UHGV virus genome: UHGV-0202386
Source of the DNA: a virus
Length of the DNA: 15,272 nt
Reading direction: 5' to 3' (one strand)
Part shown: in pieces, positions 1 to 15,272 of the stretch
How the letters are laid out: the number at the start of each line of letters is the position of its first letter
How positions within the stretch are numbered: the first letter of the stretch is position 1
The notes under the pieces: generated by a model
The model's input: only the letters and a program-made list of their open reading frames with translations
What the model was told of the DNA's origin: nothing
Database searches by the model: none
Translations under genes and position numbers: made by a program

Positions 1-125
1 TCACTGTTGAGGTACATATCAGTAAAGGTCTACCCGGCTTAACGATGGTGGGCTTACCAGAAACAACGGTAAAAGAAGCCCGCGATCGCGTGCGCAGCGC
101 CATTATCAATAGCGGATTTTTATAA
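1..125 (+). pseudogene. comM: comM/yifB 5' fragment, interrupted by the island; frame runs 3 codons into island DNA and stops at TAA 123-125
   Basis: In-frame translation from pos 3 reads [38 protein letters not shown] then FL-stop. This matches the conserved N-terminus of ComM/YifB Mg-chelatase-like ATPases as I recall it. The expected continuation [22 protein letters not shown] is found at the other end of the window. Confidence 0.85.
102..117. repeat. attL core: left copy of the 16-bp junction direct repeat (ATTATCAATAGCGGAT)
   Basis: Same 16-mer with one mismatch at 15134-15149. The left copy is the last stretch of native comM before divergence; the right copy is followed immediately by the comM continuation. 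Confidence 0.65.
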
Positions 126-130
126 ATTAG

Positions 131-240
131 TGTTCTTTGCTGTTTCATAATGTGCCACGTTGTTCGTTATGTTTTTGATTTTTAAACGCATTGCAATTTT
201 TCTTGTTCCAGCTTGTTCCACGTTGTACCCCCTTGTGCAA
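131..240 (+). repeat. Array of about 8 TGTTC/TTGTTC-like motifs with 10-bp periodicity between attL and int
   Basis: TGTTC/TGTTT/TGTGC/TGTTC begin at 131, 141, 151, 161; CTTGTTCCA at 202 and 212, CGTTGTACC at 221, CTTGTGCA at 232. Read directly from the sequence. Confidence 0.6.
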
Positions 241-245
241 TGATC

Positions 246-268
246 GGTGTAGTCACTGGTGTAGTCAT
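246..268 (+). repeat. Tandem decamer GGTGTAGTCA x2 (12-bp spacing), candidate integrase arm-type sites in attL
   Basis: GGTGTAGTCAC 246-256 and GGTGTAGTCAT 258-268. A near-identical tandem pair lies at 15045-15066. Together with TTGTTCCACGTTGT (214-227 / 15013-15026) these form an imperfect direct repeat of about 60 bp just inside both ends. Confidence 0.55.
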
Positions 269-303
269 TTTTTTGCAAAATTGGGGAGCGGGGGAGAATA
301 AAC

Positions 304-1533
304 GTGAGCAGAGCGCTTAACAAACTGAGCGATACATTGTTAAGAAAACTTTATGGTAAGCCAGCGGAGAAAAATACGTTCTATAGCGATGGCGGTAATC
401 TGAGCGTGAAATATTTAACATCAGGTAAATTGACCTGGTACTTCACCTACAGGGCTGGAACGGGAAGGGATACCACACCGGAACGCCTGAAGCTGGGAAA
501 CTATCCCGATCTGAGCCTTAAAGCAGCCAGGGAAAAAGCCGCAAAGTGTCGTGCATGGCTGGCAGAAGGGAAAAACCCACGTCATGAACTGAACTACACT
601 GTGCAGGAAGCGTTAAAACCCGTAACGGTTGGCGATGCGATCAGTTACTGGCTGGAAACGCACGTAAAGGAAAACCGTGTCGATTATGTATGCCTGAAAA
701 GTCGCCTGAATAATCACGTCATACAGCACATCGGTAACATGCCACTGGATAAATGCGAATTACGTCACTGGCTGGCCTGTTTTGACCGGATACGCAAAAA
801 ATCCCCCGTAACGTCTGGTCACATGATGCAGGCGTGTAAACAGGCGCTTAAGTTCTGCCGTAAACGTCGCTACGCAGTCAGTAACGTTCTGGATGATCTC
901 AACGTGGTGGACGTTGGCAAAAAGCCGGGCATAAGCGAACGCGTGCTTAGTAACAAAGAACTGGGCGAATTATTACAGGCGCTGGATAAAAAAATATTCC
1001 CGCCCTACTACAGCGCACTAATCCGCCTCCTGATTGTGTTTGGTTGCCGAACCGGAGAACTGAGGCTGTCGGAGATCAGGGAGTGGGATTTTAAGGAAAT
1101 GCTCTGGACAGTACCGAAGGAGCACAGCAAAACGAAGGTCGCCATATTCAGGCCAATACCGGAAAGCATTTTACCGTTTGTCACACGGCTGGTGGAGCAG
1201 AACCGACACACAGGGCTATTACTCGGGGAACTGAAACAGGAAGCCAGCGTGTCGCAATACGGCAGATTCACGCACAAAAAATTAAACCATCCGCACTGGT
1301 CACTACACGATATACGGCGCACGTTTACCACGATGCTGAATGATTTAGGCGTGGATCCGCATATTGTCGAACAACTCACCGCTCACCAGATGCCAGGGAT
1401 GCAGCGAGTCTATAACCACTCCCGTTATCTCGATGCGAAACGTAATGCGCTGGACATGTGGACAGAGCGGTTAGAGATACTGGCGGGTACTCACGAAAAC
1501 GTAACCACACTGCCAATAGCCAGAGAAATATAA
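304..1533 (+). CDS. int: Tyrosine recombinase / phage integrase (P4-type, with N-terminal arm-binding DUF4102-like region); GTG start
   Basis: 409-aa ORF. N-terminal pattern YSDGGNLSV..LTSGKLTWYFTYR...LKLGNYPDLSLKAAREKAAKCRAWLAEGKNP is typical of P4-family integrase arm domains. C-terminal catalytic signatures GCRTGELR, HWSLHDIRRTF, VYNHSRYLD. RBS-like GGGGGAG upstream of GTG 304. Sits next to attL. Confidence 0.9.
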   Translation: MSRALNKLSDTLLRKLYGKPAEKNTFYSDGGNLSVKYLTSGKLTWYFTYRAGTGRDTTPERLKLGNYPDLSLKAAREKAAKCRAWLAEGKNPRHELNYTVQEALKPVTVGDAISYWLETHVKENRVDYVCLKSRLNNHVIQHIGNMPLDKCELRHWLACFDRIRKKSPVTSGHMMQACKQALKFCRKRRYAVSNVLDDLNVVDVGKKPGISERVLSNKELGELLQALDKKIFPPYYSALIRLLIVFGCRTGELRLSEIREWDFKEMLWTVPKEHSKTKVAIFRPIPESILPFVTRLVEQNRHTGLLLGELKQEASVSQYGRFTHKKLNHPHWSLHDIRRTFTTMLNDLGVDPHIVEQLTAHQMPGMQRVYNHSRYLDAKRNALDMWTERLEILAGTHENVTTLPIAREI

Positions 1534-1554: not shown

Positions 1555-1620
1555 ACGGACACAACGTGGAACAACGAGACACAACGACGAACAACAAGGA
1601 ACAAAATGGGACAAGCGGAT
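1555..1620 (-). repeat. Six copies of GAACAACG-like motif exactly 10 bp apart (reverse complement of the TTGTTC motif) between int and alpA
   Basis: ACAACG at 1561, 1571, 1581; ACAACA at 1591; ACAAAA at 1601; ACAAGC at 1611. ACAACGTGGAACAA (1561-1574) is the exact reverse complement of TTGTTCCACGTTGT found at 214-227 and 15013-15026. Confidence 0.6.
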
Positions 1621-1871: not shown

Positions 1872-2075
1872 ATGACGGAGGCAATAGTGTTAAGCGCTGA
1901 TCGCTTTATACGTGAAAAAGAATGTCAGCAACTTACAGGCCTGAGCCGCTCATGTCGGTATCGCCTGGAGAAGACTGGACAATTCCCATCACGGCGTAAA
2001 CTCGGCGGTCGTTCCGTTGGCTGGTCTTTATCCGAAGTTCTGGCATGGAAGGACAGCCGCGAGGCAGTTCACTAA
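1872..2075 (+). CDS. alpA: AlpA-family phage transcriptional regulator / excisionase-like HTH protein
   Basis: Translation RFIREKECQQLTGLSRSCRYRLEKTGQFPSRRKLGGRSVGWSLSEVLAWK matches the AlpA/Phage_AlpA pattern (..GxSRSTIYRL...FP....LG.RSVGW..SEV..W). Alternative in-frame GTG start at 1887 is preceded by GGAGG at 1877-1881. Confidence 0.8.
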   Translation: MTEAIVLSADRFIREKECQQLTGLSRSCRYRLEKTGQFPSRRKLGGRSVGWSLSEVLAWKDSREAVH

Positions 2076-2100: not shown

Positions 2101-2216
2101 CCCATCCACTAACACAGAGATCTAACCATGAATACTGGATATACGCCCGAACAGGGGCGGGGCTTCGTTCGTCCTGGTGAAACTAAAAAGCCATGTTATC
2201 GGGTATTTTCAGGCAT

Positions 2217-2287
2217 AAAAAAAGCGGCCCCGATAAGGAACCGCCTTTCTGAACAATTAACCTGCTGCGAAAAAAATGGATCAGTGC
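2217..2287 (-). ncRNA. Candidate small RNA of about 70 nt: extended -10 promoter to intrinsic terminator, in an ORF-free gap
   Basis: Minus-strand TGaTATAAT (plus 2294-2302) gives a predicted start near 2285-2287. Terminator hairpin at 2224-2248 (AAGGCGG..CCGCUU, about 11 bp with wobbles, 5-nt loop) is followed by U7 (plus A-run 2217-2223). No ORF of 60 aa or more on either strand here except the rejected long + frame. Confidence 0.3.
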
Positions 2288-2293
2288 AGGGGA

Positions 2294-2302
2294 ATTATAT
2301 CA
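2294..2302 (-). promoter_or_regulatory. Extended -10 promoter element TGaTATAAT (minus strand), no convincing -35
   Basis: Reverse complement of plus 2294-2302 reads TGATATAAT. Read directly. Confidence 0.35.
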
Positions 2303-2340
2303 ACCGTGTGGTGAAGCGCCACTATTGCCGGATAACAGGC

Positions 2341-2369
2341 AAAACAAAGGCGACCGCAAAAGGGTCGCC
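2341..2369 (-). terminator. Intrinsic terminator of the leftward RHH operon
   Basis: Perfect 7-bp stem GGCGACC/GGTCGCC (2349-2355 / 2363-2369) with 7-nt loop. On the minus strand it is followed by TTTGTTTTG (plus 2341-2348). Lies 66 nt downstream of the stop of ORF 2436-2609. Confidence 0.55.
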
Positions 2370-2435
2370 AGTGGGAACAAGGGAAAACAAAAGCATCACC
2401 AACAATGCCACATTTGCGGCTGGTGGGCAATGTGA

Positions 2436-2609
2436 TCAGTCAGATTTGGTTCGTTCCAAGGTTTGCAACGAGAGTTTTTTCCTGCGCTCTTTAAGGAATT
2501 TCTCAAGAGCAAACGAACAAGGTGCGAATCTTTCTGATTCATGCTCTATCTTTCTGCGCCGTCTTTTCCGTGTCGGTGATAATGTTTTGGTCAATTCTTT
2601 ATCGGTCAT
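2436..2609 (-). CDS. Hypothetical small basic protein (57 aa), second gene of the leftward operon
   Basis: ORF MTDKELTKTLSPTRKRRRRKIEHESERF..., AGGG 8 nt upstream of ATG 2609. An alternative ATG at 2624 has no RBS. A perfect 7-bp hairpin (2631-2637 / 2651-2657) separates it from the upstream gene. Supported mainly by the downstream terminator; no recognisable family. Confidence 0.35.
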   Translation of the reverse strand: MTDKELTKTLSPTRKRRRRKIEHESERFAPCSFALEKFLKERRKKLSLQTLERTKSD

Positions 2610-2666
2610 TGTGTTGCCCTGCATAGCAATGCGCCGTAATACCTTACACCACGGCGCTGGTGATGG

Positions 2667-2846
2667 TTACTCCTGCTCTTTGGCCTTGCGGCGCTGGCGG
2701 CGTTTGATCTCGCCTTGCATTGACGCAATGATGAATTGTGATGTGCTTTCGCCTGATTCTTTCACTGATTCCATGGCGTTTACTATTTCGTGTGGTACAC
2801 GAGCCTTTAGAGCTTGTGATTTTGCGTTTGTTGTACCCGTTGCCAT
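2667..2846 (-). CDS. Small ribbon-helix-helix (Arc/CopG-like) DNA-binding protein, candidate repressor of the divergent early promoter
   Basis: 59-aa ORF MATGTTNAKSQALKARVPHEIVNAMESVKESGESTSQFIIASMQGEIKRRQRRKAKEQE. By eye: beta strand (KARVP), helix, helix, basic tail. RBS AGAGGA upstream of ATG 2846. Faces a promoter overlapped by direct repeats. Confidence 0.65.
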   Translation of the reverse strand: MATGTTNAKSQALKARVPHEIVNAMESVKESGESTSQFIIASMQGEIKRRQRRKAKEQE

Positions 2847-2907
2847 TTCTATTCCTCTGTTGGATTGGTGGGGGACAGTATACACAGAAAAAGCACAAAT
2901 AAAACCC

Positions 2908-2948
2908 TTGACGTGGGCCACACCTAAAGCATATAGTGGGCCACACCT
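2908..2948 (+). promoter_or_regulatory. Rightward early promoter (-35 TTGACG 2908-2913, 18-bp spacer, -10 TATAGT 2932-2937) overlapped by two 13-bp direct-repeat operators GTGGGCCACACCT
   Basis: Repeat copies at 2913-2925 and 2936-2948 (perfect 13/13, 23-bp spacing), one over the -35/spacer and one over the -10/start. Sits in the divergent region between the RHH gene and the rightward ORF cluster. Confidence 0.5.
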
Positions 2949-2974
2949 TGAGATTGTCAAGGTGCATAAATGCA

Positions 2975-3009
2975 AAGCCCCGCAAGTGTCGTTACCACTC
3001 GCAGGGCTT
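2975..3009. other. Strong stem-loop in the 5' leader of the rightward operon; on the minus strand it reads as hairpin plus UUUGCAUUUAU
   Basis: AAGCCCCGCAAGTG (2975-2988) pairs with CACTCGCAGGGCTT (2996-3009) at 12 of 14 positions, 7-nt loop. No T-run on plus; T-rich tail on minus (plus 2961-2974). Confidence 0.5.
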
Positions 3010-3045
3010 CTAACCACCAACGATAGAAAGTGTATCGAGGTAGCT

Positions 3046-3252
3046 ATGAGAAATTATACCAGACACCCGCAAGGGCGGGACTCGTACAACCTGAATAAAT
3101 ACATCTGGCGTTTTATCGCCCTGAGCACGGCACAACCGCGCGTGATTACCATTGAGGCCACCAGCGAACAGGAAGCGCGTCAGCAATCTCCTGATGGCTG
3201 CGTGATGGTATTCGCTGCCCGTATTCGTCAGGGGGTACGCCATGTGCAATAA
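3046..3252 (+). CDS. Hypothetical protein (68 aa), first gene of the rightward early operon
   Basis: ATG 3046 preceded by GAGGT (3037-3041). Translation MRNYTRHPQGRDSYNLNKYIWRFIALSTAQPRVITIEATSEQEARQQSPDGCVMVFAARIRQGV. A vague resemblance to small Icd/Ash-like satellite proteins is my impression only. Confidence 0.6.
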   Translation: MRNYTRHPQGRDSYNLNKYIWRFIALSTAQPRVITIEATSEQEARQQSPDGCVMVFAARIRQGVRHVQ

Positions 3253-3938: not shown

Positions 3939-4238
3939 ATGAAACTTAAATATTCTGGCTTAACTGCCAGTGGCAACACTCACCCTAAATTTACGCGCGG
4001 CGATATTTACCGCGACCAGTACGGCGGCACGGTAATGATTAAGGGCGTGGAAGAACGGCGCGTAACCTACCGCCGTGAAGGTTACGAATATGATTGCGTG
4101 ATGCCTGTTTATCAGTTCCGGCGTGATTTTTCTCTGGTACAGACCGCGCCGCATAACGTGTCCACCAGCAACGCCAGGGCACGGGCAAACATCCAGAAGC
4201 TGAAAACCATGATTAACGGATTCAGGGGTAAAAAATGA
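3939..4238 (+). CDS. Hypothetical protein (99 aa), possibly DUF4222-like
   Basis: Motif YRDQYGGTVMIKGVEERRVTYRREGYEYDCVMPVYQFRRDF reminds me of DUF4222 proteins of enterobacterial prophages (memory only). Stop overlaps the primase start. Confidence 0.5.
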   Translation: MKLKYSGLTASGNTHPKFTRGDIYRDQYGGTVMIKGVEERRVTYRREGYEYDCVMPVYQFRRDFSLVQTAPHNVSTSNARARANIQKLKTMINGFRGKK

Positions 4239-6049
4239 AACTGGCACCGAACGTAAAACAGCAGTCACGCGGCATAAAACACAAAGAAACAGAAGTCATT
4301 ATTTTTGCGGGTAGTGATGCCTGGTCACACGCAAAACAATGGCAGGAACATGACGCGCGTATGGCCGGAGATAATGAGCCTCCTGTGTGGCTTGGGGAGC
4401 AGCAGTTATCCGAACTGGATAAGCTGCAAATTGTGCCGGAAGGCAGAAAATCCGTGCGCATATTCAGGGCCGGATATCTTGCGCCAGTAATGATAAAGGC
4501 GATTGGTCAGAAGCTGGCGGCGGCAGGCGTACAGGATGCAAATTTTTATCCTGAGGGTATGCACGGTCAGGAGGTGCAGAACTGGCGCGAATATCTGGCC
4601 CGTGAGCGCCAGAATCTTTCTGATGGTCTGGTGATTCAGCTTCCTGTTAAGAAAAAAACAGAAGACAGCGCCGCACCACTGGCGCTTAACCAGATGGGAG
4701 CAAGCCAGCGCGGCGAAGTTCTCCTGGCACATTATGGCGGTGAACTGGCGATTCATGCCGACTCTGACACTGTTCACCATTACAACGGCGTTGTATGGGA
4801 GCCGATTCAGGATAAAGAGTTACAGCGTGCTATGGCGCAGATTTTCATTGATGCGGAGATCAGCTATTCGCAGAACGCCATTAAATCGGCGGTCGATACC
4901 ATGAAGTTAAGTTTGCCTGTAATGGGGAATACAGCCCGTAACCTGATTGGATTCAGTAACGGGGTATTTGATACCAGAACAGGTAATTTTCGGGAGCATA
5001 ACAAAAACGACTGGTTGTTAATTGCCAGTGAATTACCTTTCAGCCCACCAGCAGAGGGGGAAACGCTGGCAACACATGCGCCGAATTTCTGGAAGTGGTT
5101 ACGCTGCTCGGTGGCAGAGAATGACCGCAAGACGGATCGCGTGCTGGCTGCATTATTCATGGTGCTGGCGAACCGGTACGACTGGCAGTTATTCATTGAG
5201 GTAACAGGTCCAGGGGGAAGTGGTAAAAGCGTGATGGCGGAGATTTGCACTATGCTGGCGGGTAAGGCCAACACAGTATCGGCAAGCATGAAGGCGCTGG
5301 AAGATGCAAGGGAACGCGCGTTAGTGGTTGGCTTTTCGCTGATTATCATGCCGGATATGACCCGCTACGCTGGTGATGGCGCAGGAATTAAGGCCATTAC
5401 AGGCGGTGACAAGGTGGCAATCGACCCGAAGCATAAAGCCCCCTACTCAACACGCATTCAGGCGGTCGTGCTGGCGGTGAACAATAACGCCATGTCATTC
5501 AGTGACCGCAGCGGGGGGATCTCACGTCGTCGGGTGATATTCAATTTTTCGGAGGTTGTACCGGAGAACGAGCGCGACCCCATGCTGGCAGAAAAAATAG
5601 AAGGAGAGCTGGCGGTTGTGATTCGCCATCTGCTTACTCGTTTTTCTGACCAGGACGAAGCTAAACGCCTGCTGTATGAGCAGCAGAAATCAGAAGAAGC
5701 TCTGGTGATAAAACGCGAGGGCGATTCGCTGGTGGACTTCTGTGGCTATCTCATGTCGTCGGTAATGTGTGATGGTCTGTTAGTGGGTAATGCCGAAATT
5801 ATTCCGTTCAGTCCGCGCAGGTATCTTTATCACGCCTATCTGGCATATATGAGGGCACACGGATTCGGTAAACCTGTAACACTGACGCGCTTCGGTAAAG
5901 ATATGCCGGGGGCAATGGCGGAATATGGCAGGGAGTATATAAAACGGAAAACGAAGCACGGTTTGCGTTCAAATGTGACACTGACAGAGGATTCAGAAGA
6001 CTGGATGCCATCATGTGCATCGGTCACAAATGACGACAGCAAAAATTAA
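4235..6049 (+). CDS. Replication initiator: P4-alpha-like primase / SF3 helicase (Walker A GPGGSGKS)
   Basis: 604-aa ORF. Walker A in VTGPGGSGKSVMAE, Walker B-like LIIMPDM, sensor AVVLAVNNN. Followed directly by TGTTCACC iterons, as for P4 alpha and its ori. Confidence 0.8.
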   Translation: MKLAPNVKQQSRGIKHKETEVIIFAGSDAWSHAKQWQEHDARMAGDNEPPVWLGEQQLSELDKLQIVPEGRKSVRIFRAGYLAPVMIKAIGQKLAAAGVQDANFYPEGMHGQEVQNWREYLARERQNLSDGLVIQLPVKKKTEDSAAPLALNQMGASQRGEVLLAHYGGELAIHADSDTVHHYNGVVWEPIQDKELQRAMAQIFIDAEISYSQNAIKSAVDTMKLSLPVMGNTARNLIGFSNGVFDTRTGNFREHNKNDWLLIASELPFSPPAEGETLATHAPNFWKWLRCSVAENDRKTDRVLAALFMVLANRYDWQLFIEVTGPGGSGKSVMAEICTMLAGKANTVSASMKALEDARERALVVGFSLIIMPDMTRYAGDGAGIKAITGGDKVAIDPKHKAPYSTRIQAVVLAVNNNAMSFSDRSGGISRRRVIFNFSEVVPENERDPMLAEKIEGELAVVIRHLLTRFSDQDEAKRLLYEQQKSEEALVIKREGDSLVDFCGYLMSSVMCDGLLVGNAEIIPFSPRRYLYHAYLAYMRAHGFGKPVTLTRFGKDMPGAMAEYGREYIKRKTKHGLRSNVTLTEDSEDWMPSCASVTNDDSKN

Positions 6050-6062
6050 ACTTATGGAATAA

Positions 6063-6293
6063 CTGTTCACCACTGTTCACCCTGTTATAAATATCTTTTA
6101 TATCAGTACATTATAGGGTGAACAGTTATTTGTGAACTGTTCACCAAACTATTCACTGTTCACCTTTTTGATTATTTATTGAGCTTTAAGGGTGAACAGT
6201 GGTGAACAGTTGGTGAATAGTTTTTGTGAAACTGTTCACCCCTTAACGTTATGAATAAAAAGGGAAAATCTCAAAAGGTGAACAGGTGAAGGG
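6063..6293. repeat. Origin of replication: about 11 copies of the 9-mer CTGTTCACC (P4 type-I iteron TGTTCACC) in both orientations
   Basis: Plus-orientation copies at 6063, 6073, 6137, 6156, 6232; reverse-orientation GGTGAACAG at 6117, 6191, 6201, 6277, with variants at 6212 and 6285. AT-rich spacers. Lies immediately downstream of the primase. Confidence 0.8.
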
Positions 6294-6336
6294 TTAAAAT
6301 GCAAAAATTTTATTTTATTGCTGTGAGGTAAAGCCT

Positions 6337-6582
6337 GTGACAACGCAGCACGCAAAAAAACCACAATCTCACGCCCTTGATTTGACAGAACACTGGCTGA
6401 GGGTGGCGATAAAAATCATCGACCGCAACGCGGGAGAAGGGTACGCAAAAGCACATCCCGAACTGGTAAGCGCATTCATGACCACGGCAGCGGCAAACTT
6501 TGCCACACTGACAGAACGGGAGATTGCCGAAGCGGAACAGGTGACAACCATCAACGTTAAAACCGGAGAGCAGACAGCATGA
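6337..6582 (+). CDS. Hypothetical protein (81 aa), GTG start
   Basis: GAGG at 6325-6328, 8 nt before GTG 6337. Stop overlaps the ssb start (ATGA). Unknown family. Confidence 0.5.
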   Translation: MTTQHAKKPQSHALDLTEHWLRVAIKIIDRNAGEGYAKAHPELVSAFMTTAAANFATLTEREIAEAEQVTTINVKTGEQTA

Positions 6583-7004
6583 CAGCACAGATAGCGGCTT
6601 ACGGGCGGCTGGTGGCTGACCCGCAGTTAAAGACCACCAGCAAAGGGACACAAATGGCGATGGCGAGTATGGCGGTTCCCCTGCCGTGCAGCCAGGCAGA
6701 TGACGGAACGGCGACGATGTGGTTATCTGTCCTGGCGTTTGGCAGACAGGCCGACGCACTGGCAAAACACCACAAAGGCGAACTGGTGAGCGTGGCGGGT
6801 AACATGCAGGTGAGCCAGTGGACAGGCCAGAACGGGGAAACGCGGCAGGGCTGGCAGGTTATTGCAGACAGCGTAATCAGTGCGCGAACGGCGCGACCGG
6901 GCGGCAAAAAAGGTCAACAGGGCCAGGCCACTGACGCACTGAACAGGGCAAAACAACAGACAAGCCAGCACGATGACCCGTACGGGGATAACATACCGTT
7001 TTAA
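6579..7004 (+). CDS. ssb: Single-stranded DNA-binding protein (short SSB with conserved C-terminal ..D-N-IPF tip)
   Basis: OB-fold pattern (W..V.AFG..A..L.K...KG..V.V.G......W....G..R) and C-terminus DDPYGDNIPF resembling the SSB acidic tip DDDIPF. GGAGAG RBS. Confidence 0.8.
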   Translation: MTAQIAAYGRLVADPQLKTTSKGTQMAMASMAVPLPCSQADDGTATMWLSVLAFGRQADALAKHHKGELVSVAGNMQVSQWTGQNGETRQGWQVIADSVISARTARPGGKKGQQGQATDALNRAKQQTSQHDDPYGDNIPF

Positions 7005-7040
7005 TTCACAACAGCGAACAGAGTAATTACAGGGGAAGGC

Positions 7041-7571
7041 ATGACAACGCTGACCATTAACCGGAAGCCGAAAGGCATTTACGGCACGCCGCAGAAAACG
7101 ACGCAGGCGGCGCAAGAGCAGGATAAAACCACATCGGTGCATAAAGTGATACCCGGCAATCAGAACGCACAGCAGAAGCCCACAGGGGCGACACCGTGGC
7201 AGCATATGACCAAAAGGCAGCGCAAAAACCGCCGACGCGTTAACCGCCTCACTGAGATGTGGCCTGACTTATTCAGCCATAAAGCACCGAAGCCGCTTAA
7301 GGTGGGGATATTCGACGACCTGATGCAGGATATCGCCGTCAGGGGGCTGGCATTCGGGTCGGGGGTATTACGTGCGACGCTGGCATCCTATGCGCAGTCT
7401 CCGCGCTATTACCGCGCCCTGATAGCTGGTGGCGCACGTTACGACCTGAAGGGCCAGCCATGTGGGGAAGTGACACCACAGGAACAGCAGGAGGCAGAAA
7501 CACGGCTGATGGTGCTGAATGAGAAGCACAAGCGCCAGCGCCGGGCAGCAAAGGGGGATACATGCCAGTGA
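7041..7571 (+). CDS. ProQ/FinO-domain RNA-binding protein (FinO-like RNA chaperone)
   Basis: PKPLKVGIFDDLMQDIAVRG...LRATLASYAQSPRYYRALIAGGARYDLKGQPCGEVTPQEQQEA aligns by eye to the ProQ/FinO core (PLKIGIFQDL...[35 protein letters not shown]). Lys/Gln-rich N-terminal extension. RBS AGGGGAAGG. Confidence 0.8.
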   Translation: MTTLTINRKPKGIYGTPQKTTQAAQEQDKTTSVHKVIPGNQNAQQKPTGATPWQHMTKRQRKNRRRVNRLTEMWPDLFSHKAPKPLKVGIFDDLMQDIAVRGLAFGSGVLRATLASYAQSPRYYRALIAGGARYDLKGQPCGEVTPQEQQEAETRLMVLNEKHKRQRRAAKGDTCQ

Positions 7572-7810
7572 CATTTGAAGAAGTTCAGCAACATAAAAAG
7601 CTTCATGGTTTTGATGATCTGGAAACCACGACAGCAAAAAAATATCGTCGGTTGCTTTCTTCCGATGCGTTATTTTTTGTGGATCATCATGATTTTCTGC
7701 GTAGCTCACTGACCGGGGAAATTTTCGCAACCAACCGTGAGCAGGTGGAAGCGATGATCGAATATTTGTGGAAAATAAGACGCAGAATGCGGGAGCCAGT
7801 GAAACAATAA
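7562..7810 (+). CDS. Hypothetical protein (82 aa), last gene of the early/replication operon
   Basis: ATG 7562 overlaps the upstream stop; AGGGGGA RBS. Followed by a strong terminator. Confidence 0.5.
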   Translation: MPVTFEEVQQHKKLHGFDDLETTTAKKYRRLLSSDALFFVDHHDFLRSSLTGEIFATNREQVEAMIEYLWKIRRRMREPVKQ

Positions 7811-7820
7811 AGCGATAAAG

Positions 7821-7847
7821 GCCCGGATTTTTTCCGGGTCTTTTTTC
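7821..7847 (+). terminator. Rho-independent terminator ending the early/replication operon
   Basis: GCCCGGA-TTTTT-TCCGGGTC hairpin (7821-7840) followed by TTTTTT (7841-7847). Confidence 0.8.
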
Positions 7848-7864
7848 AGGTTTTGTAAATTATT

Positions 7865-7890
7865 TGTTCGTGGTTGTTCCAGGTTGTTCG
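7865..7890 (+). repeat. Three TTGTTC motifs exactly 10 bp apart, upstream of the capsid operon
   Basis: TTGTTC at 7865, 7875, 7885 (TTGTTCGTGG / TTGTTCCAGG / TTGTTCGGTG). Same motif family as the arrays at 131-240, 1555-1620 and 15001-15030. Confidence 0.6.
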
Positions 7891-7980
7891 GTGATTCTGG
7901 TTGATGTTTACATACTGATTTTTATGTATATGTTGGCGTGTGGCACTCAGACGTGAGCCGCCACAATGCCGCCTGATCCC

Positions 7981-8013
7981 CTGCGCGATGCCGGGTTGAT
8001 CTGCGAGATGCCG
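7981..8013 (+). promoter_or_regulatory. Pair of 13-bp direct repeats CTGCG(C/A)GATGCCG 20 bp apart, candidate activator sites of the late (capsid) promoter
   Basis: Copies at 7981-7993 and 8001-8013, 12 of 13 identical, 70-100 bp upstream of the capsid start. No good sigma-70 -35/-10 nearby, which fits an activator-dependent promoter. Confidence 0.35.
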
Positions 8014-8083
8014 AGAGTGTCGGGCGGCGCTCCCCCCGTGTTGGTTTCACGTCCTGAATCTTAACCAATGCGAGAAAACCTTC

Positions 8084-9229
8084 ATGAAGAAATTAATCGA
8101 ACTCCGCCAGCAAAAAACCGCCCTGAAAAACCAGATGCGATCCCTGCTGGAAAAAGCCGACAGTGAAAACCGCAGTCTAACCGATGACGAAGGCAAACAG
8201 TTTGATGAACTGCGTGCAAAAGCCGATTCCCTCGACACAGAAATTTCCCGCCTCGAGTCTGTGGCTGATGAAGAACGTAACCAGCCTGGTGTTCCCGTCG
8301 AAGATAAAATCACCAAAAATGAGCTACGCTCTTACATTCTGACCGGGGAAACCCGCAACCTGTCCGGCAGTGTTCCGGCTGATGGTGGTTATACGGTTAT
8401 CCCGGAACTGAACAGAGAAATTATGCGTCAGCTTTCTGATGAGTCGGTGATGCGTAAAATCTGTACTGTTAAAACCATTCACAGTAATGAATTTAAGCAA
8501 CTGGTTTCTGCCGGGGGTGCGGTCGTGGGACACGGCGAAGAAGGTGCGGCACGTAACCAGACGGCAACCCCAAAACTGAATGAAGTCAGTATCCGCCTGT
8601 ATCCGATCTACGCTTACCCGAAAACCACTCAGGAAATTATCGATTTTTCCGAAGTCGATATTATGGGCTGGTTATCTTCTGAAATTGGCGACACTTTCGT
8701 TGATACCGAAGAAACGGATCTGGTTTCCGGTGATGGCGAGAAAAAAGCCAAAGGTTTCCTGACTTTCCCGCGCGCTACGGATAATGACAAAACCCGTCCT
8801 TTCGGTACGCTCCAGACGAAAAAAGTGACTGGCAGTCTCAGCGCCGATATGCTGATTGACCTGAAATTTACGCTGCGCAATAAGTACCGCAAAAAAGCTG
8901 TATGGGTGATGAACTCAAATACAGCCGCCTCCGCACAAAAACTGAAAAATGCCACTGGTGATTACATCTGGCGCGATCGTTTACAGGCTGGTGATCCTGA
9001 TTCTCTGCTGGGGCTTCCGGTTGAATATCTGGAATTTATGCCGGACGGTGTGATTGCAGTCGGTGACTTTAAGCGCGGTTATTTCATCGTTGACCATAAA
9101 ACCGGTACGCGTACCCGTCCGGATTTCAGCGAGCCTGGATTCATTAACATCTATACCCAGAAATATCTGGGCGGTGGTGTGGTGGATTCGAACGCCATCA
9201 AGATTCTGGAAATTCAGGCTGGCAAGTAA
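8084..9229 (+). CDS. HK97-family major capsid protein with N-terminal coiled-coil delta/scaffold domain
   Basis: 381 aa. N-terminal about 70 aa is charged coiled-coil (ELRQQKTALKNQMRSLLEKADSENRSL..). C-terminal motifs LLGLPVEYLEFMP..GDFKRGYFIVDHKTG...YLGGGVVDSNAIKILE are typical of Phage_capsid (HK97 fold). Confidence 0.85.
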   Translation: MKKLIELRQQKTALKNQMRSLLEKADSENRSLTDDEGKQFDELRAKADSLDTEISRLESVADEERNQPGVPVEDKITKNELRSYILTGETRNLSGSVPADGGYTVIPELNREIMRQLSDESVMRKICTVKTIHSNEFKQLVSAGGAVVGHGEEGAARNQTATPKLNEVSIRLYPIYAYPKTTQEIIDFSEVDIMGWLSSEIGDTFVDTEETDLVSGDGEKKAKGFLTFPRATDNDKTRPFGTLQTKKVTGSLSADMLIDLKFTLRNKYRKKAVWVMNSNTAASAQKLKNATGDYIWRDRLQAGDPDSLLGLPVEYLEFMPDGVIAVGDFKRGYFIVDHKTGTRTRPDFSEPGFINIYTQKYLGGGVVDSNAIKILEIQAGK

Positions 9230-9278
9230 TGAGCAAAGGGGGCTTCGGCCTCCTTTTTCAGCTTTATGGAGTACACCG

Positions 9279-9839
9279 ATGAAAAACACCGATTTTGAAA
9301 TCCGTACATCTGAACTGACCGCCAGCGATAAAAAACTGGTGGGTTATGCCGTTCGCTGGAACAGCCTTTCAGAAATTATCTGGGACGAGTTTCGCGAACA
9401 GTTCACGCCGGGGGCTTTTGCTGACTATCTGGCGGCGGGTAATGATGTGCGCTGTCTGTATGAGCATGACTATACCCAACTGCTGGGGCGTACCAAATCC
9501 GGCTCACTGGTACTGACTGAGGATAACACCGGGCTACGTTTTGAACTGACACCGCCAAATACCCAGCTTGGAAAAGATGTGCTTACGCTGGTGGAACGTG
9601 GCGATATTACAGGAATGAGCTTTGGCTTTCGCGCATTATGCGAGGAGTGGAATATCGCGCAAAAACCGTATCTGCGTACTGTAACCGCCGCAGAACTCCG
9701 TGAAATCACGATAACATCGATGCCTGCTTATCCCGAATCCGGCGTGGAGATTGCCCACCGTTCGTTGTTTGCACAGTACCCTGAATTACGCCCGGCAGGA
9801 AATAATCGTCATCGCTGGGCTGAACTGGCGGGGTTGTGA
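9279..9839 (+). CDS. HK97-family prohead (maturation) protease
   Basis: MKNTDFEIR...LVGYAVRWN...FTPGAFADYL...VRCLYEHD..QLLGRTKSGSLVLTEDNTGLRFE...GKDVLTLVERGDITGMSFGF matches the Peptidase_S78/U35 prohead-protease pattern. GGAG RBS at 9268-9271. Confidence 0.85.
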   Translation: MKNTDFEIRTSELTASDKKLVGYAVRWNSLSEIIWDEFREQFTPGAFADYLAAGNDVRCLYEHDYTQLLGRTKSGSLVLTEDNTGLRFELTPPNTQLGKDVLTLVERGDITGMSFGFRALCEEWNIAQKPYLRTVTAAELREITITSMPAYPESGVEIAHRSLFAQYPELRPAGNNRHRWAELAGL

Positions 9840-9840
9840 T

Positions 9841-11055
9841 ATGTGGTGGCCTTTTAGTCGTAAAAAAAGCGATCTGCGTAACCTGTCCATTGATGATTTT
9901 CTGGCGTTGTCTGGTGTACCAAATACCGGATCCGGAGAATATGTTTCTGCCGGGACGGCTGAATCATTGCCTGCTGTGATGAACGCGGTTTCTGTCATCG
10001 CTGAGGCGGTGGCCACGATGCCGTGTTACCTGTATCTGGTACGCAATGATAAGGGCAGAGAGGCGCGGGAATGGCTGGACAGTCACCCGGTAGATATTCT
10101 GCTGAATGAGCAGCCTAATTCGTGCCTGACACCTTACCAGTTTAAACGCACAATGATGCGTCACTGCCTGCTGAACGGTAACGCCTATGCGGTTATTGAG
10201 TGGGGGCGGGACGGGCAGCCAAAATCACTTCATCCTTATGCGCCGGGGTGTGTTGTACCGGAACGCACAGGCACACACAAATACCGCTATACCATCACCG
10301 AACCCTGTACAGGAACGGTGCGCACGTATTTACAGGAAGAAGTTCTGCATCTCCGCTATGCCTCGGATGATGGCTTTCTGGGGCGTTCCCCCGTCACGAT
10401 TTGCCGTGAGGCGCTGGGGCTTGGCCTTGCTCAACAGCGCCACGGAGCCAGCATTATGAAAGATGGCATGATGGCGGCAGGGATTATCACGTCAGGTGAA
10501 TGGCTGGACGGCGTGAAAGGTAAACAGGCATTAGACGCACTGGAACGCTACAAGGGGGCGAAAAATGCCGGAAAAACGCCAATCCTTGAAGGGGGCATGG
10601 ATTACAGGCAGCTGGGGATGAGTAACCAGGATGCGGAATGGCTGGCCTCCCGTCGCTTCTCCATTGAAGACATCGCCAGGATGTTCAACGTGTCGCCGAT
10701 TTTTCTTCAGGAATACAGCAACAGCACCTACAGCAATTTCAGTGAGGCGAGCCGCGCATTTCTGACCATGACAATGCGCCCGTGGCTGGCGAACTTCGAA
10801 CAGCAAATCAAGGCCGCTTTGCTGGTGACTTCTCCCGTACCTGGTACCCGTTATCTGGTTGAGTTTGATTCAGCCGATTTACTGCGCGCCACACCCACCG
10901 AACGTTATGCCACGTATGAGAAAGGGATTAAGAGCGGGATCATGAATCCGAACGAAGCTCGCGAACGCGAGGGTATGCCGCCGCGTGAAGGTGGTGATGA
11001 GTTCAGCCAGGCATGGAAACAGACTGTGGAAATTAAAGGGAGAAAAGATGAGTGA
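9841..11055 (+). CDS. HK97-family portal protein
   Basis: 404 aa from ATG 9841, 1 nt after the protease stop. Long conserved portal-like core (NAYAVIEWGRDGQP..., SIMKDGMMAAGIITSGEWLDG..., FLTMTMRPWLANFEQQIKAALL). Position and size fit a portal. Confidence 0.8.
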   Translation: MWWPFSRKKSDLRNLSIDDFLALSGVPNTGSGEYVSAGTAESLPAVMNAVSVIAEAVATMPCYLYLVRNDKGREAREWLDSHPVDILLNEQPNSCLTPYQFKRTMMRHCLLNGNAYAVIEWGRDGQPKSLHPYAPGCVVPERTGTHKYRYTITEPCTGTVRTYLQEEVLHLRYASDDGFLGRSPVTICREALGLGLAQQRHGASIMKDGMMAAGIITSGEWLDGVKGKQALDALERYKGAKNAGKTPILEGGMDYRQLGMSNQDAEWLASRRFSIEDIARMFNVSPIFLQEYSNSTYSNFSEASRAFLTMTMRPWLANFEQQIKAALLVTSPVPGTRYLVEFDSADLLRATPTERYATYEKGIKSGIMNPNEAREREGMPPREGGDEFSQAWKQTVEIKGRKDE

Positions 11056-11350
11056 AGCCAGAATTACACCTGATGAAGTCAGGGCACATCTTCGACTTGA
11101 TGATGATTTATCCGGTGAAGGCGAACTTCTGAAAATGTATACCGATGCGGCGCTGGAAGCCTGCCAGAAGCATATCGGGAAACGTTTTGAAGACGGGCTG
11201 GAATTTACCCCGGCAATGCGTGTTGGTTGCCTGATGTACATCGCTTTCCTGTACGAGAACCGGGAAGCGGTTTCACCAGTGGAGCAGTCTGAACTGCCTA
11301 TGGCTATTTCTGCGCTCTGGTCAGTTTATCGTGATGTAGGGGTGTACTGA
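11048..11350 (+). CDS. gp6-like head-tail connector (head completion/adaptor) protein
   Basis: 100 aa. MSEARITPDEVRAHLRLDDDLSGEGELLKMYTDAALEACQKHIGKRF matches the Phage_connect_1 N-terminal pattern (..HLRID.D.D...I......AA). Start overlaps the portal stop. Confidence 0.7.
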   Translation: MSEARITPDEVRAHLRLDDDLSGEGELLKMYTDAALEACQKHIGKRFEDGLEFTPAMRVGCLMYIAFLYENREAVSPVEQSELPMAISALWSVYRDVGVY

Positions 11351-11790
11351 TGCCGTGGCAACCATTAAGGCGATGCACTGAGCCGGGCTGTAATAAGCGC
11401 GTGAAGTCCGGCAAGTGTGAAGAGCACAGGCGGGCTGTATGGCGTGCAGAGGATGCCAGACGGGGACACCGCCGCGCGCGCGGGTATTCCCGACAGTGGG
11501 ACAAATACCGCGCCCTGTACCTGAGCAAAAACCCGTTATGCGTGCGTTGTCTGGCTAAGGGGATTTATACGCCAGCTCTTGTGGTGGATCACATCATCCC
11601 CATCAATGGCGGCGGTGATGTTCTCTTCTGGCCTGAGTGGAACCACCAGGCATTGTGCCAGACGTGCCACAACCGTAAGACGACACGGGAAGATCCAGCC
11701 ACGAAAGCGAACCGTAAGGCGGGCATGTATCGCGAGCAGGAAGAACGGGCAGCACACCGTAACGACTGGATGTATGGCGATGATGACTGA
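11350..11790 (+). CDS. Phage HNH endonuclease (terminase-associated)
   Basis: Cys-rich zinc finger (CTEPGCNKRVKSGKCEEH ... CVRC ... CQTCHNRKT) with VVDHIIPINGGGD..WNHQALC HNH core. Located immediately upstream of terS/terL, as in HK97-like cos phages. ATG overlaps the upstream stop (TGATG). Confidence 0.8.
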   Translation: MPWQPLRRCTEPGCNKRVKSGKCEEHRRAVWRAEDARRGHRRARGYSRQWDKYRALYLSKNPLCVRCLAKGIYTPALVVDHIIPINGGGDVLFWPEWNHQALCQTCHNRKTTREDPATKANRKAGMYREQEERAAHRNDWMYGDDD

Positions 11791-11959
11791 ACAGGAGCAA
11801 ACCAGGCTGATACGTGGACTGATAAGGCAGCGTGACTTATGGAAGACACAGGAGACAGGGCACAAAGCCAACAGGACAGGGCGCACAAAACGCACCACAG
11901 CGAAGCGATTAACCGACCGTGACCGCGAGGCCATGGAATGTTTTCGCAATCGCTGGTGA
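11780..11959 (+). CDS. Doubtful small basic ORF (about 59 aa) overlapping the HNH stop; may instead be non-coding cos DNA
   Basis: ATG-ATG at 11780/11783, no clear RBS. Arg/Lys/Thr-rich low-complexity translation. Confidence 0.2.
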   Translation: MMTEQEQTRLIRGLIRQRDLWKTQETGHKANRTGRTKRTTAKRLTDRDREAMECFRNRW

Positions 11960-12078
11960 GGCCGTCAGAGGGGGTGGGGGTGGTTTTCAGGACGAAACCG
12001 TCCCTGCCGGACACCGACCGCCTCCTCAAATTTTTGTGCACGGGAATTTTTTTGAAAATAATTGGGCGAAAAAAGAAC
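11791..12078 (+). other. Candidate cos/packaging-recognition region between HNH and terS, containing a G-rich tract
   Basis: 288-bp gap without a convincing gene. GGGGGTGGGGGTGG at 11970-11983 followed by a CAGGACG-AAAC-CGTCCCTG hairpin. Location argument: in HK97-like phages cos lies between the HNH gene and terS. Confidence 0.3.
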
Positions 12079-12435
12079 ATGGCAAGACCACCAAAAGCCC
12101 CCGCTTACCTGGATGAAATCGCGGTCAGGCAGTGGAAGGAAAAATCGCGCCAGCTTTCCGGACGGGAAGACCTTACCCCCGCCGACTGGAGCAATCTGGA
12201 GCTGTATTGTGTTAACTACTCCATATACCGCAAAGCCGTCGAAGACCTTGCCACGCGCGGGTTCAGCATTGTTAACAGTCAGGGCAGCGAGAGCAGAAAC
12301 CCCGCCCTGAGCGCAAAGGCTGACGCTGAAAGAATAATGATCAAAATGGCTTCTTTGCTGGGTTTTGACCCGGTAAGTCGCCGCAGAAATCCACCGGAAA
12401 CAGAGGAAGAGGACGAGCTTGACCGCCTGGCATGA
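12079..12435 (+). CDS. terS: Terminase small subunit, P27 family
   Basis: MARPPKAPAYLDEIAVRQWKEK...LELYCVNYSIYRKAVEDL...GSESRNPALSAKADAERIMIKMASLLGFDPVSRRR matches the P27-family TerS pattern. The ORF-track N-terminal extension (from 11938) has no support. Confidence 0.75.
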   Translation: MARPPKAPAYLDEIAVRQWKEKSRQLSGREDLTPADWSNLELYCVNYSIYRKAVEDLATRGFSIVNSQGSESRNPALSAKADAERIMIKMASLLGFDPVSRRRNPPETEEEDELDRLA

Positions 12436-14080
12436 GTACGCAGAAGGCGTAAAAAACGGCAAAATTACGGCCTGTAAACGACTGAAACAGGCCGTTAAAC
12501 GGTATTTTTCTGACCTTGAAAACCCCCTTTACACGTTCGATCCGGAGGTCGTGGAGCGGTTTATTGCCTTTTCCAGGGTGTGTCCGCACGTAAAAGGCGC
12601 AATGCGCGGTAGCCCCATTGAGCTGGAGCCGTGGCAGCAGTTCGCCTTTGCGTGCATCCTGGGCTTTAAGGTTAAGGCCACCGGACGGCGCAAATACACC
12701 AGCGCATTCATTGAAGTGCCGCGAAAAAATGCCAAATCCACGGTCGCCGCTATCCTGGCTAACTGGTTTCTGGTTATGGAAAACGGGCAGCAGGATATTT
12801 ACACCGCCGCTGTGAGTCGTGATCAGGCGCGGATCGTGTTTGATGATGCGCGTCAGATGTGCCTTTTATCCCGACCGTTACGAAAGCGGGTAAATATTCA
12901 GGCACACAAGGTGATACACCCGAAAACCAACAGCCTGTTAAAGCCACTGGCAGCAAAAGCGGCAACCATTGAAGGTACAAACCCGAGTCTTGCCATTGTG
13001 GATGAATATCACCTGCACCCTGACAACGGGGTTTATTCCGCGCTTGAACTGGGAATGGGGGCGCGTCCGGAGGGGCTGTTATTTGCCATCACCACATCGG
13101 GGAGCAACGTTGTTTCAGCCTGTAAACAACACTATGACTATTGCTGCCAGATACTGGATGGTGAAGAGGTGAACGAATCCATGTTCGTGCTGATTTACGA
13201 GCTGGATGATGAAAGCGAGGTTGACGATCCGGCGATGTGGATAAAGGCGAATCCCAATATCGATGTTTCCGTCGATCGTGAAAAACTGGCCTCAACCATC
13301 CAGAAAGCGCGGGGTATTCCGTCGCAGTGGGTGGAAATGCTCACCAAGCGATTCAATATCTGGTGTCAGGGGGCTACGCCGTGGATGGGTAACGGTGCAT
13401 GGGCGGAGTGCGCCGGAACGTTCGCGGAGGCGGATTTATACGGTCAGGAGTGCTACGCGGGGCTGGACTTATCATCAACCAGCGATATTTCCAGCGTGTG
13501 CTATGCCTTTCCGGTCGGTAAAAAGATTATGCTGGTTTCCCGTCACTATCTGCCGGAATTTCAGCTACAGAACCCCGCCAATAAAAACCGCGCCATCTAT
13601 CGCCAGTGGGTAAAGGCGGGCTGGATACGCACAACACCGGGTGACTGCATTGATTATGACCGTATCCGTGATGACATCATGGCGGATGCAGAGAATTTCA
13701 ATATCAGGCTGGTGGGCTTCGATACATGGAACGCCACGCACCTGAGGACGCAGCTACAGGGGGCAGGATTTGAGGTGGAGCCGTTCCCGCAAACATACCT
13801 TCGTTTCAGTCCGGCGGCGAAATCGTTCGAAGTTTTTGTTAACCGGAAGGTGATTGTGCATCGTGGCGATCCGGTGCTGGCCTGGTCAATGAGTAATGTT
13901 GTGATGCAGAGTGACGCGAACGCCAATATCAAGCCGAACAAGAAAAAATCATCCAACAAGATAGACCCGAGCGTTGCGGCTCTGATGGCGTTTGGCACAT
14001 TCCAGGCAGAACATGAGGAATTTGCATTTGATATAAGCGACAGCCACAAAGAGCGGCTTGCGGCGTTTGATGGGGTATGA
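12419..14080 (+). CDS. terL: Terminase large subunit (Terminase_1-like ATPase/nuclease); apparent TTG start overlapping terS by 17 nt
   Basis: 553 aa. Size, position after terS and a conserved-looking N-terminal region (PWQQFAFACILGFKV..., DIYTAAVSRDQARIVFDDAR). No in-frame ATG until codon 62; GAGGA at 12408-12412 precedes TTG 12419. Confidence 0.85.
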   Translation: MTAWHEYAEGVKNGKITACKRLKQAVKRYFSDLENPLYTFDPEVVERFIAFSRVCPHVKGAMRGSPIELEPWQQFAFACILGFKVKATGRRKYTSAFIEVPRKNAKSTVAAILANWFLVMENGQQDIYTAAVSRDQARIVFDDARQMCLLSRPLRKRVNIQAHKVIHPKTNSLLKPLAAKAATIEGTNPSLAIVDEYHLHPDNGVYSALELGMGARPEGLLFAITTSGSNVVSACKQHYDYCCQILDGEEVNESMFVLIYELDDESEVDDPAMWIKANPNIDVSVDREKLASTIQKARGIPSQWVEMLTKRFNIWCQGATPWMGNGAWAECAGTFAEADLYGQECYAGLDLSSTSDISSVCYAFPVGKKIMLVSRHYLPEFQLQNPANKNRAIYRQWVKAGWIRTTPGDCIDYDRIRDDIMADAENFNIRLVGFDTWNATHLRTQLQGAGFEVEPFPQTYLRFSPAAKSFEVFVNRKVIVHRGDPVLAWSMSNVVMQSDANANIKPNKKKSSNKIDPSVAALMAFGTFQAEHEEFAFDISDSHKERLAAFDGV

Positions 14081-14445: not shown

Positions 14446-14472
14446 GGGTGTTTAATACCCCCCGTTTTTTTT
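14446..14472 (+). terminator. Weak candidate terminator of the late operon (short stem then T8)
   Basis: GGGTG..TACCC stem (about 5 bp), then CCCG and TTTTTTTT at 14465-14472. A larger GGTATT/AATACC stem (14430-14435 / 14454-14459) encloses it. Stem is weak and separated from the T-run. Confidence 0.35.
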
Positions 14473-14483
14473 CGTGTGGTGCA

Positions 14484-14498
14484 TGGTCAAAATGACCA
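14484..14498. promoter_or_regulatory. Perfect 6-3-6 palindrome TGGTCA-AAA-TGACCA (operator-like)
   Basis: Read directly; typical geometry for a dimeric HTH-protein binding site. Confidence 0.45.
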
Positions 14499-14624
14499 CG
14501 GAGAAGATACGCACCGAAGCAGAACAATTACCGTAGGTTAAAGCGACAGTATTCACACCAGCAACCTGATTATCAATTTTCAGCCGTTCGGTGGCATCAC
14601 TGGCCCCATTTTCCTGATGGGGTT

Positions 14625-14676: not shown

Positions 14677-14752
14677 GCTTTGGCTAATATTCAAACGCAT
14701 CATTTTTTAACCCATTGATATTAAATAATAAAAAACACTTAGCAAGCGAAGA

Positions 14753-14799: not shown

Positions 14800-15000
14800 G
14801 AAAAATTGCATTCAGGAGGTGGGATCGAAATCCCTACAACCCATTGCTTATGGGACTGCCCGCCCCGTCAAATTTTTACACCCGCGAAAAATACTTCAAG
14901 CTGGTGGGCATGATGCCGATATGGGGATCCCCATGTCGACATTAACGCCCCTCATGAATTGGCGTGCTTCCCCCTGGAAAGATGACCCGCCTGTATATTT

Positions 15001-15066
15001 CTTGTGTCTATTTGTTCCACGTTGTTTCATACAGTGCACCGAACGGTGTAGTTACTGGTGTAGTCA
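15001..15066 (+). repeat. Right-arm copy of the terminal repeat: 3 phased TTGT motifs, TTGTTCCACGTTGT, and tandem GGTGTAGTTA/GGTGTAGTCA
   Basis: TTGT at 15002, 15012, 15022. TTGTTCCACGTTGT 15013-15026 is identical to 214-227. GGTGTAGTTACTGGTGTAGTCAT 15045-15067 versus left GGTGTAGTCACTGGTGTAGTCAT 246-268. Confidence 0.6.
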
Positions 15067-15133
15067 TTTTGCGATTTTTAAAGTTATCTAAGATATTATT
15101 TGTCATTTAAATTCAATTGGTTATGAGTACTTG

Positions 15134-15149
15134 ATTATAAATAGCGGAT
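15134..15149. repeat. attR core: right copy of the 16-bp junction repeat (ATTATAAATAGCGGAT)
   Basis: 15 of 16 identical to 102-117. comM sequence resumes in frame from here. Confidence 0.65.
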
Positions 15150-15272
15150 ATGAATATCCGGCGAAAAAAATCACCATCAATCTGGCTCCAGCCGATCTGC
15201 CAAAAGAAGGGGGACGATATGATTTACCTATCGCCATTGCGTTGCTGGCGGCCTCAGAACAGCTTACAGCCA
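15140..15272 (+). pseudogene. comM: comM/yifB continuation (3' part, runs off the window), separated from its 5' end by the island
   Basis: In-frame translation [44 protein letters not shown] continues the ComM N-terminal domain begun at 1-116. The frame is closed upstream by TAA 15089-15091, with no ATG or RBS before the junction. Confidence 0.8.

Follow-up and report, generated by a model that had tools for sequence, protein, structure and literature searches.

A capsid-forming PICI-type phage satellite integrated in the yifB (comM) gene of Escherichia coli

Capsid-forming phage satellites of the PICI type (cf-PICIs) are delimited by their gene set and by a size of 10-18 kb (bioRxiv 10.1101/2025.02.11.637232), and published work gives six attB sites for those residing in E. 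coli. A second body of work concerns comM, a gene whose role in natural transformation and branch migration has been shown in V. cholerae and A. baylyi (PMC6158740), and whose reading frame is disrupted by various mobile elements in A. baumannii, V. cholerae, P. syringae, Pasteurellaceae and others, as compiled in a 2025 review (PMC12378983). A cryo-EM study reports that the Lon-like domain of ComM is required for oligomerization and DNA translocation, with ring-interface and DNA contacts involving E22, S26, K43, K46, R50, K64 and R117 (PMC11612176). A sequence-only reading that preceded our analysis had stated that comM is a known target of islands in other genera and that insertion there blocks natural transformation. 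The first part of this statement agrees with the literature, in which comM is a recurrent target (PMC12378983; PMC7192596); the second is too strong, as cells lacking comM transform less well without losing the ability altogether (PMC12378983).

The DNA analyzed here, a stretch of 15,272 nucleotides to which we refer as the window, holds a 15,032-bp cf-PICI-type phage satellite between the two halves of the E. coli yifB/comM gene. With the cf-PICIs it shares the length of about 15 kb, an AlpA regulator, a primase module, its own set of genes from the capsid to the large terminase, and a dedicated attB. As in the comM disruptions of naturally transformable Gram-negative bacteria, the same gene is hit and the loss of the branch-migration helicase is to be expected; unlike in those cases, the element is a phage satellite equipped with a tyrosine integrase, and its host is E. 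coli. AbaR islands, for which comM is the classic target, move by Tn7-like transposition. The present island differs from these AbaR/Tn6019-type elements in that Pfam scans and the PGAP annotation of a near-identical island reveal no transposase, and in that its ends are att cores and not inverted repeats.

A precedent from an enterobacterial comM gene is the S. Typhi prophage ST35 (TIGER entry Sen346.34.comM), whose attB is located in the same 5' segment. Its core, aatttccggctaaaaaaataaccatt, corresponds to codons 59-67 and follows directly on the ...ATTAATAGCGGATATG used by the present island; ST35 is, however, a 34-kb prophage with another core and another integrase. A short 5' segment of comM serves two unrelated integrases in this manner. 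At positions 15145-15160 (native yifB codons 56-62) we also noted a perfect palindrome, CGGATAT-GA-ATATCCG, that overlaps the right end of the present core, and right after which the ST35 core begins. The insertion resembles the candidates for regulated gene integrity reported by Mageeney et al. (2020) in breaking a Pfam domain without restoring it and in the recurrence of a tight integrase clade at the site. It is unlike them in that at least two comM entries of that study stand in the serine-integrase tree under codes other than that of E. coli (Aac, Bca), and yifB is mentioned in a later paper as a target of serine recombinases. The att sequence described below was not found in the TIGER supplements.

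Positions 1-117 and 15149-15272 of the window are the two halves of yifB/comM. When the island is removed together with one core copy, so that positions 1-117 are joined to 15150-15272, the empty site is regained as a 240-nt sequence that matches the intact yifB gene of strain CFSAN061763 at 240/240 positions (100%), and this uninterrupted sequence is present in 5,398 of the 5,426 complete E. coli genomes. With a length of 1,521 nt (506 codons), the intact gene has ilvL and maoP as its neighbors. Its product carries a Lon-protease-like domain (ChlI, PF13541; residues 21-142), a Mg-chelatase/MCM-like AAA+ domain (PF01078; 189-386) and a Mg_chelatase_C domain (PF13335; 400-492), and both fragments in the window are 100% identical to the allele bearing all three of these ComM Pfam domains. 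At full length, with residues 1-493 aligned, intact YifB is similar to the solved structure of L. pneumophila ComM (PDB 8rxd; E=7.2e-141). Base 1 of the window corresponds to nt 56 of the 1,521-nt gene; Gly57 is consequently encoded at 114-116, and codon 58 (TAT) begins at position 117 in the left half of the gene and at 15149 in the right half. Exact identity to yifB restarts at 15140, or as far back as 15134 if one synonymous mismatch is tolerated. A second yifB copy was not found, as a junction-spanning query had at most two places per genome among the 5,426 complete E. coli genomes, and each yifB half has a single place in the closest genome, that of strain E500002.

These data bear out what the sequence-only reading had proposed for the flanks. 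Their assignment to comM/yifB is confirmed by the Pfam architecture, the 8rxd match and the ilvL-yifB-maoP synteny, and the split that it had placed near codon 57 falls directly after Gly57. Translation likewise shows the left comM frame, read from base 3, to stop at 123-125 and the right one to be closed by the TAA at 15089-15091, as it had described, and exact yifB identity does restart at the position (15140) from which it had the comM remainder resume. Aligning both ends to an uninterrupted comM allele, a step that it had suggested, yields the full 240-nt match; the crossover falls within AATAGCGGAT. A second, intact comM copy, which it had named as evidence that would speak against a split gene, was not seen in the complete E. 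coli genomes searched. The coordinates of all features are collected in Table 1.

Table 1. Features of the yifB::satellite locus in the 15,272-nt window.
Feature	Position	Strand	Remarks
yifB/comM 5' fragment, codons 20-57	1..116	+	Frame from base 3; corresponding E500002 piece matches Pfam ChlI profile positions 1-38 of 121
attL core ATTATCAATAGCGGAT	102..117		Host-type C at 107; same in E500002, ETEC1748, Z1323CEC0003 and 5 metagenome contigs
Fusion tail Phe-Leu-stop, TAA 123-125	117..125	+	Island DNA; base 117 still common to yifB
Island left arm (P' arm)	118..303	+	Four 10-bp-phased TTGTTCCACGTTGT-like repeats 150-236; tandem GGTGTAGTCA pair 246-267
Tyrosine integrase, 409 aa, GTG start	304..1533	+	PF13356 Arm-DNA-bind_3, PF22022 Phage_int_M, PF00589 Phage_integrase
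AlpA-family HTH regulator, candidate excision/induction factor	1872..2075	+	Pfam PF05930, E=3.4e-18
DUF4222 protein	3939-4238		
Replication and packaging modules of the satellite	4235..14080	+	
D5-type primase	4235-6049	+	
SSB	6579-7004	+	
ProQ-like protein	7041-7571	+	
HK97-type major capsid protein	8084-9229	+	
S78 prohead protease	within 9054-9839	+	
Portal	within 9751-11055	+	
HNH endonuclease	11350-11790	+	
P27-type small terminase (TerS)	within 11938-12435	+	
Large terminase (TerL)	12419-14080	+	
Convergent ORF	14452-14703	-	After the last + strand gene, ahead of attR
Island right arm (P arm)	14995..15133	+	76-nt direct repeat of left arm, TTGTTCCACGTTGT, GGTGTAGTYA pair
TAA closing the yifB frame within the island	15089..15091	+	58 nt ahead of codon 58
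Sole in-frame alternative start, TTG	15131..15133	+	Without usable Shine-Dalgarno; missing from ETEC1748 and Z1323CEC0003
attR core ATTATAAATAGCGGAT	15134..15149		Island-type A at 15139, synonymous for Ile54 (ATC vs ATA)
yifB/comM 3' fragment, codons 58-98 within the window	15149..15272	+	Open to codon 506 in the closest genome

The island is flanked by a 16-bp direct repeat, ATTAT(C/A)AATAGCGGAT, whose copies at 102-117 and 15134-15149 differ at a single position (107 and 15139, respectively). The host attB, ATTATCAATAGCGGAT, covers yifB codons 53-58; read in the frame of yifB, the island core gives the residues IINSG. In the window, as well as in strain E500002 (L001), the pig isolate ETEC1748 (L006) and the chicken isolate Z1323CEC0003 (L007), attL carries the host-type C in each case, and attR the island-type A. 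Every copy inspected keeps this asymmetry, which places the resolved exchange in AATAGCGGAT, rightward of the variable base. The integrase gene, whose product PGAP labels as 'tyrosine-type recombinase/integrase', starts 186 bp from attL, and the motif residues R249, H335-x-x-R338, H361 and Y370 can be read from its sequence. Very probably, the tyrosine integrase encoded by the island brought about the insertion in a conservative, site-specific recombination reaction.

The two arms of the island are enriched in repeats. Units resembling TTGTTCCACGTTGT occur in 10-bp phase with 13 matches, versus 1.8 expected by chance, and are located at 150-236 (+), 1561-1614 (-), 7864-7887 (+) and 15012-15025 (+); they cluster in the two att arms, in the int-alpA interval and in the region upstream of the capsid gene. 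Tandem GGTGTAGTCA pairs are present once in each arm (246-267 and 15045-15066), and are contained within a 76-nt direct repeat that the arms have in common (196-271 versus 14995-15070; 78% identity). These arm repeats are plausible candidate sites for the arm domain of the integrase or for AlpA. If the TTGTTCCACGTTGT-like units do bind the integrase or AlpA, recombination would be linked with the control of the late operon.

With int at its left end, rightward transcription and a length of about 15 kb, the island displays the set of cf-PICI modules (integrase, regulation, replication, and capsid to TerL) within the size range of this class; Pfam scans of it and PGAP annotation of the near-identical E500002 island show neither tail nor lysis genes. 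Beyond the features of Table 1, the PGAP annotation also lists a head-tail connector and an Icd-like protein. Only distant relatives were present in the phage collection, and they cover 30% of the island at about 76% identity. One long open reading frame, 2128-3252 (+, 374 aa), was considered as a cargo or defence gene and rejected: it has no Pfam or PADLOC match and an odd, Cys/Arg-rich composition. The annotations of relatives place an Icd-like gene, and YlcI/YnfO genes on the opposite strand, in overlap with this frame, which is probably no genuine gene.

Two further stretches of the island drew our attention. Positions 14699-14773 match the annotated cos site of phiP27 at 85.7%. This stretch is probably the satellite's own cos site, a reading that fits its HNH, P27-type TerS and TerL genes, and the match would be compatible with cos packaging of the satellite. 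Directly downstream of the primase gene, positions 6048-6262 are densely filled with direct and inverted GGTGAACAG(T) repeats, which probably represent an iteron replication origin.

The insertion is not confined to a single strain. Both the attL junction (positions 1-300) and the attR junction (14973-15272) are present as a whole in 27 of the 5,426 complete E. coli genomes, and these 27 carriers nearly account for the 28 genomes without an uninterrupted yifB site; five metagenome contigs share attL as well. The hosts of the carriers are humans, pigs, chickens, one baboon and one rodent from several continents. As a side observation, many of the 27 carriers are enterotoxigenic or diarrhoeal strains (for instance pig ETEC1748/4077/4079, O169:H41, O166:H15, and Indian and Mozambican isolates from human stool). 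In strain E500002, yifB is occupied by an island 99% identical to ours. The occupant in pig ETEC1748 is a classical PICI with PerC, RepA and NUDIX genes, and that of Z1323CEC0003 is a satellite with major capsid, head decoration and small terminase proteins. The integrases of the latter two are 94-97% identical to that of the window and their junctions are identical. Judged from the three yifB insertions inspected, three satellite types share one int-att module. This modular cassette is exchanged among E. coli satellites, and yifB appears to be the cognate attB for one of its specificity subtypes. Three island types that have the same junctions and integrases of 94-97% identity, and 27 genomes with the insertion, amount to a recurrence of the kind that TIGER looks for in a tight integrase clade. 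Exact 23-mer scans for attL and attP in IMG/VR and in a set of one genome per species gave no matches, and an integrase-based scan of the same one-genome-per-species set gave no confirmed relative. The excised attP form was not found in IMG/VR or among the metagenome contigs, all five matches in the latter representing attL; the present mobility of this island copy is something that we infer.

What remains of comM after the insertion is an N-terminal stub of 57 codons followed by Phe-Leu-stop, and a 3' part comprising codons 58-506. The comM allele is very probably null, a view that we base on the position of the break inside the Lon-protease-like domain needed for the hexameric ring and for DNA translocation. 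Most of the ComM contact residues listed above fall into the severed 57 residues. The ChlI Pfam score drops from 151.2 bits for the intact protein to 45.6 (profile positions 1-38) and 100.6 (32-121) for the attL and attR pieces, respectively, as measured on their E500002 equivalents. The resulting ratio of the attB form to the best attL/R piece is 1.50, whereas TIGER speaks of 'disruption without restoration' from a bit-score ratio above 1.1 (Mageeney et al., 2020; PMC7192596). PGAP calls both yifB pieces pseudogenes.

Restart of translation in the 3' part finds little to build on. Neither ATG nor GTG occurs in frame between 15092 and the junction, and the next in-frame ATG within yifB itself is that of Met223. 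A replacement 5' end provided by the island at attR was considered and rejected, as similarity to YifB is limited there to the five residues that the core encodes, IINSG. Terminator-like hairpins are located on the + strand at 14446-14460 and 14601-14625, after the last + strand gene, and no promoter-like site was detected on that strand beyond them; these scans for promoters and terminators are crude consensus matches. The sequence-only reading had considered comM probably inactivated, to which the broken domain, the loss in score and the PGAP pseudogene calls lend support. It had further held that there is no ATG or RBS before the junction and that the island supplies no replacement start. 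The lack of an in-frame ATG stands and extends to GTG, but one in-frame TTG, devoid of a Shine-Dalgarno sequence, has to be added; as this codon is not conserved and only the core residues match YifB, the island still does not provide a new beginning for the gene.

The 3' piece of the E500002 locus has retained an open frame in which 450 of 455 residues are identical to those of the intact allele. With this undecayed 3' piece, a core that is in frame, a core mismatch that is synonymous, and intact int and AlpA genes, excision would restore wild-type yifB.

We therefore consider it highly probable that a cf-PICI-type satellite was integrated by its own tyrosine integrase into yifB, leaving a null allele that excision would restore. 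In this event, the attP core of the island, ATTATAAATAGCGGAT, recombined with the host attB, ATTATCAATAGCGGAT, in yifB. The exchange within AATAGCGGAT kept the host C in attL and placed the island A in attR, and left the 3' part (codons 58-506) promoterless and startless, with its frame closed upstream. Recognition of the core sequence, rather than selection for the loss of ComM, most likely determined the choice of comM. Natural transformation is not an established trait in E. coli. The simplest view is that of a sequence-driven site choice by a diversifying integrase family, in which the loss of comM would be a tolerated side effect.

The relatives of the island at other sites are instructive in this respect. 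Nearly the same cf-PICI (93-97% coverage, 96-98% identity) is located between abgR and smrA (L004). Its integrase is 93.6% identical to that of the window, with 21 of the 26 residue differences in the first 120 residues, and its core, ATTAT[T/A]AATATCGTGA, is four bases off the yifB-type attP. Another copy (L003), with an integrase of 82% identity and a core ending in ATATCCC, resides between allE and allC. Both of these islands bear GGTGTAGTTAA in place of the GGTGTAGTCA pairs. In E. coli E300010 (L005, positions 2500-2520 and 17588-17610), preA holds an island of 98.5% identity that has the yifB-type attP core and an integrase 99.5% identical to that of the window. It sits at the poorly matching site CAATATCGAT, an off-target event by which a gene is likewise split. 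Non-yifB arms look commoner than those of the yifB type: beyond one place per genome, 84 were counted, and all 33 of the listed non-yifB places, preA aside, are in unannotated DNA. Because close integrase relatives with near-identical cores use intergenic sites, comM does not seem to be specially sought by this island family and appears as one target among several.

An adaptive insertion, or one acting as a regulatory switch in the sense of 'regulated gene integrity', would entail that the loss of ComM lessens recombinational curing of integrated elements and that ComM returns upon excision when it is needed; it could also bring int under the control of the yifB promoter. We regard this as unlikely, although several observations speak in its favor. 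Unrelated elements repeatedly strike comM across many Gram-negative bacteria, and a role of ComM in the removal of mobile elements has been suggested (PMC12378983); yifB is among the genes newly named as candidates for regulated gene integrity (PMC7192596). The core of the S. Typhi ST35 prophage (codons 59-67) adjoins the present site, the E. coli site is used by three satellite types in hosts from several continents, and the ChlI ratio of 1.5 signifies domain disruption by the measure of TIGER. Furthermore, the 5' piece of yifB and int are co-oriented, and a crude consensus scan of the + strand of the 186 bp between them gave neither a terminator-like nor a promoter-like site. Transcription from the yifB promoter, which we take to be regulated by Sxy/CRP-S, could consequently read into int. 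Against these points stand the closest relatives of the integrase, which occupy intergenic sites with a similar core and are seemingly commoner, and the preA off-target insertion, which shows that targeting is sequence-driven. Excision of PICIs is tied to helper-phage induction, when cells are near lysis, the insertion is found in just 0.5% of genomes, and transformation is possible without comM (PMC12378983). Similarly doubtful is a joint reading, in which the satellite would disable the host's competence regulon and at the same time respond to it: the removal of ComM would lead to less curing, the yifB promoter would drive int, and the yifB integrase would have been retargeted recently from an abgR-smrA ancestor. 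If true, the yifB and abgR-smrA integrases would form a natural system for shifts in tyrosine-integrase specificity.

Less probable still is the production of a truncated or fused ComM protein with partial or altered function, made from the TTG at 15131 or from an internal start on read-through transcripts of the packaging operon. The TTG (15131-15133) is in frame, the late genes of the island are co-oriented with yifB, and the 3' open reading frame is intact, with complete AAA+ and C-terminal domains. However, the TTG has no Shine-Dalgarno sequence and is missing in the ETEC1748 and Z1323CEC0003 copies, two terminator-like hairpins and the convergent ORF at 14452-14703 (-) precede attR, and the product would be deprived of a third of the Lon-like domain, including the equivalents of E22, S26, K43, K46 and R50. 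Entry by transposition in the manner of the AbaR/Tn6019-type elements of Acinetobacter, to which the comM disruption in A. baumannii (PMC12378983) might point, and an assembly chimera are both ruled out by the structure of the junctions and their recurrence: the ends are a 16-bp imperfect direct repeat equal to host sequence, without terminal inverted repeats or a short target duplication, a tyrosine integrase adjoins attL, and identical junctions are found in 27 finished genomes and five metagenome contigs.

Integration of the satellite by its own integrase, the reading that we favor, is an event familiar in kind, since the disruption of comM by mobile elements is already well documented, and it does not overturn current understanding. 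It defines exactly the att sites of a PICI integration module of E. coli and places the phage satellites of this bacterium on the long list of comM-resident elements. About 0.5% of finished E. coli genomes would accordingly bear a comM null allele, one that is presumably reversible. At the same time, the intergenic sites used by sister integrases with near-identical cores counsel caution, as not every insertion into comM needs to reflect anti-transformation targeting. The yifB, abgR-smrA and allE-allC pairs of integrases and sites, together with the preA event, may serve as a natural series for studying and engineering integrase specificity.
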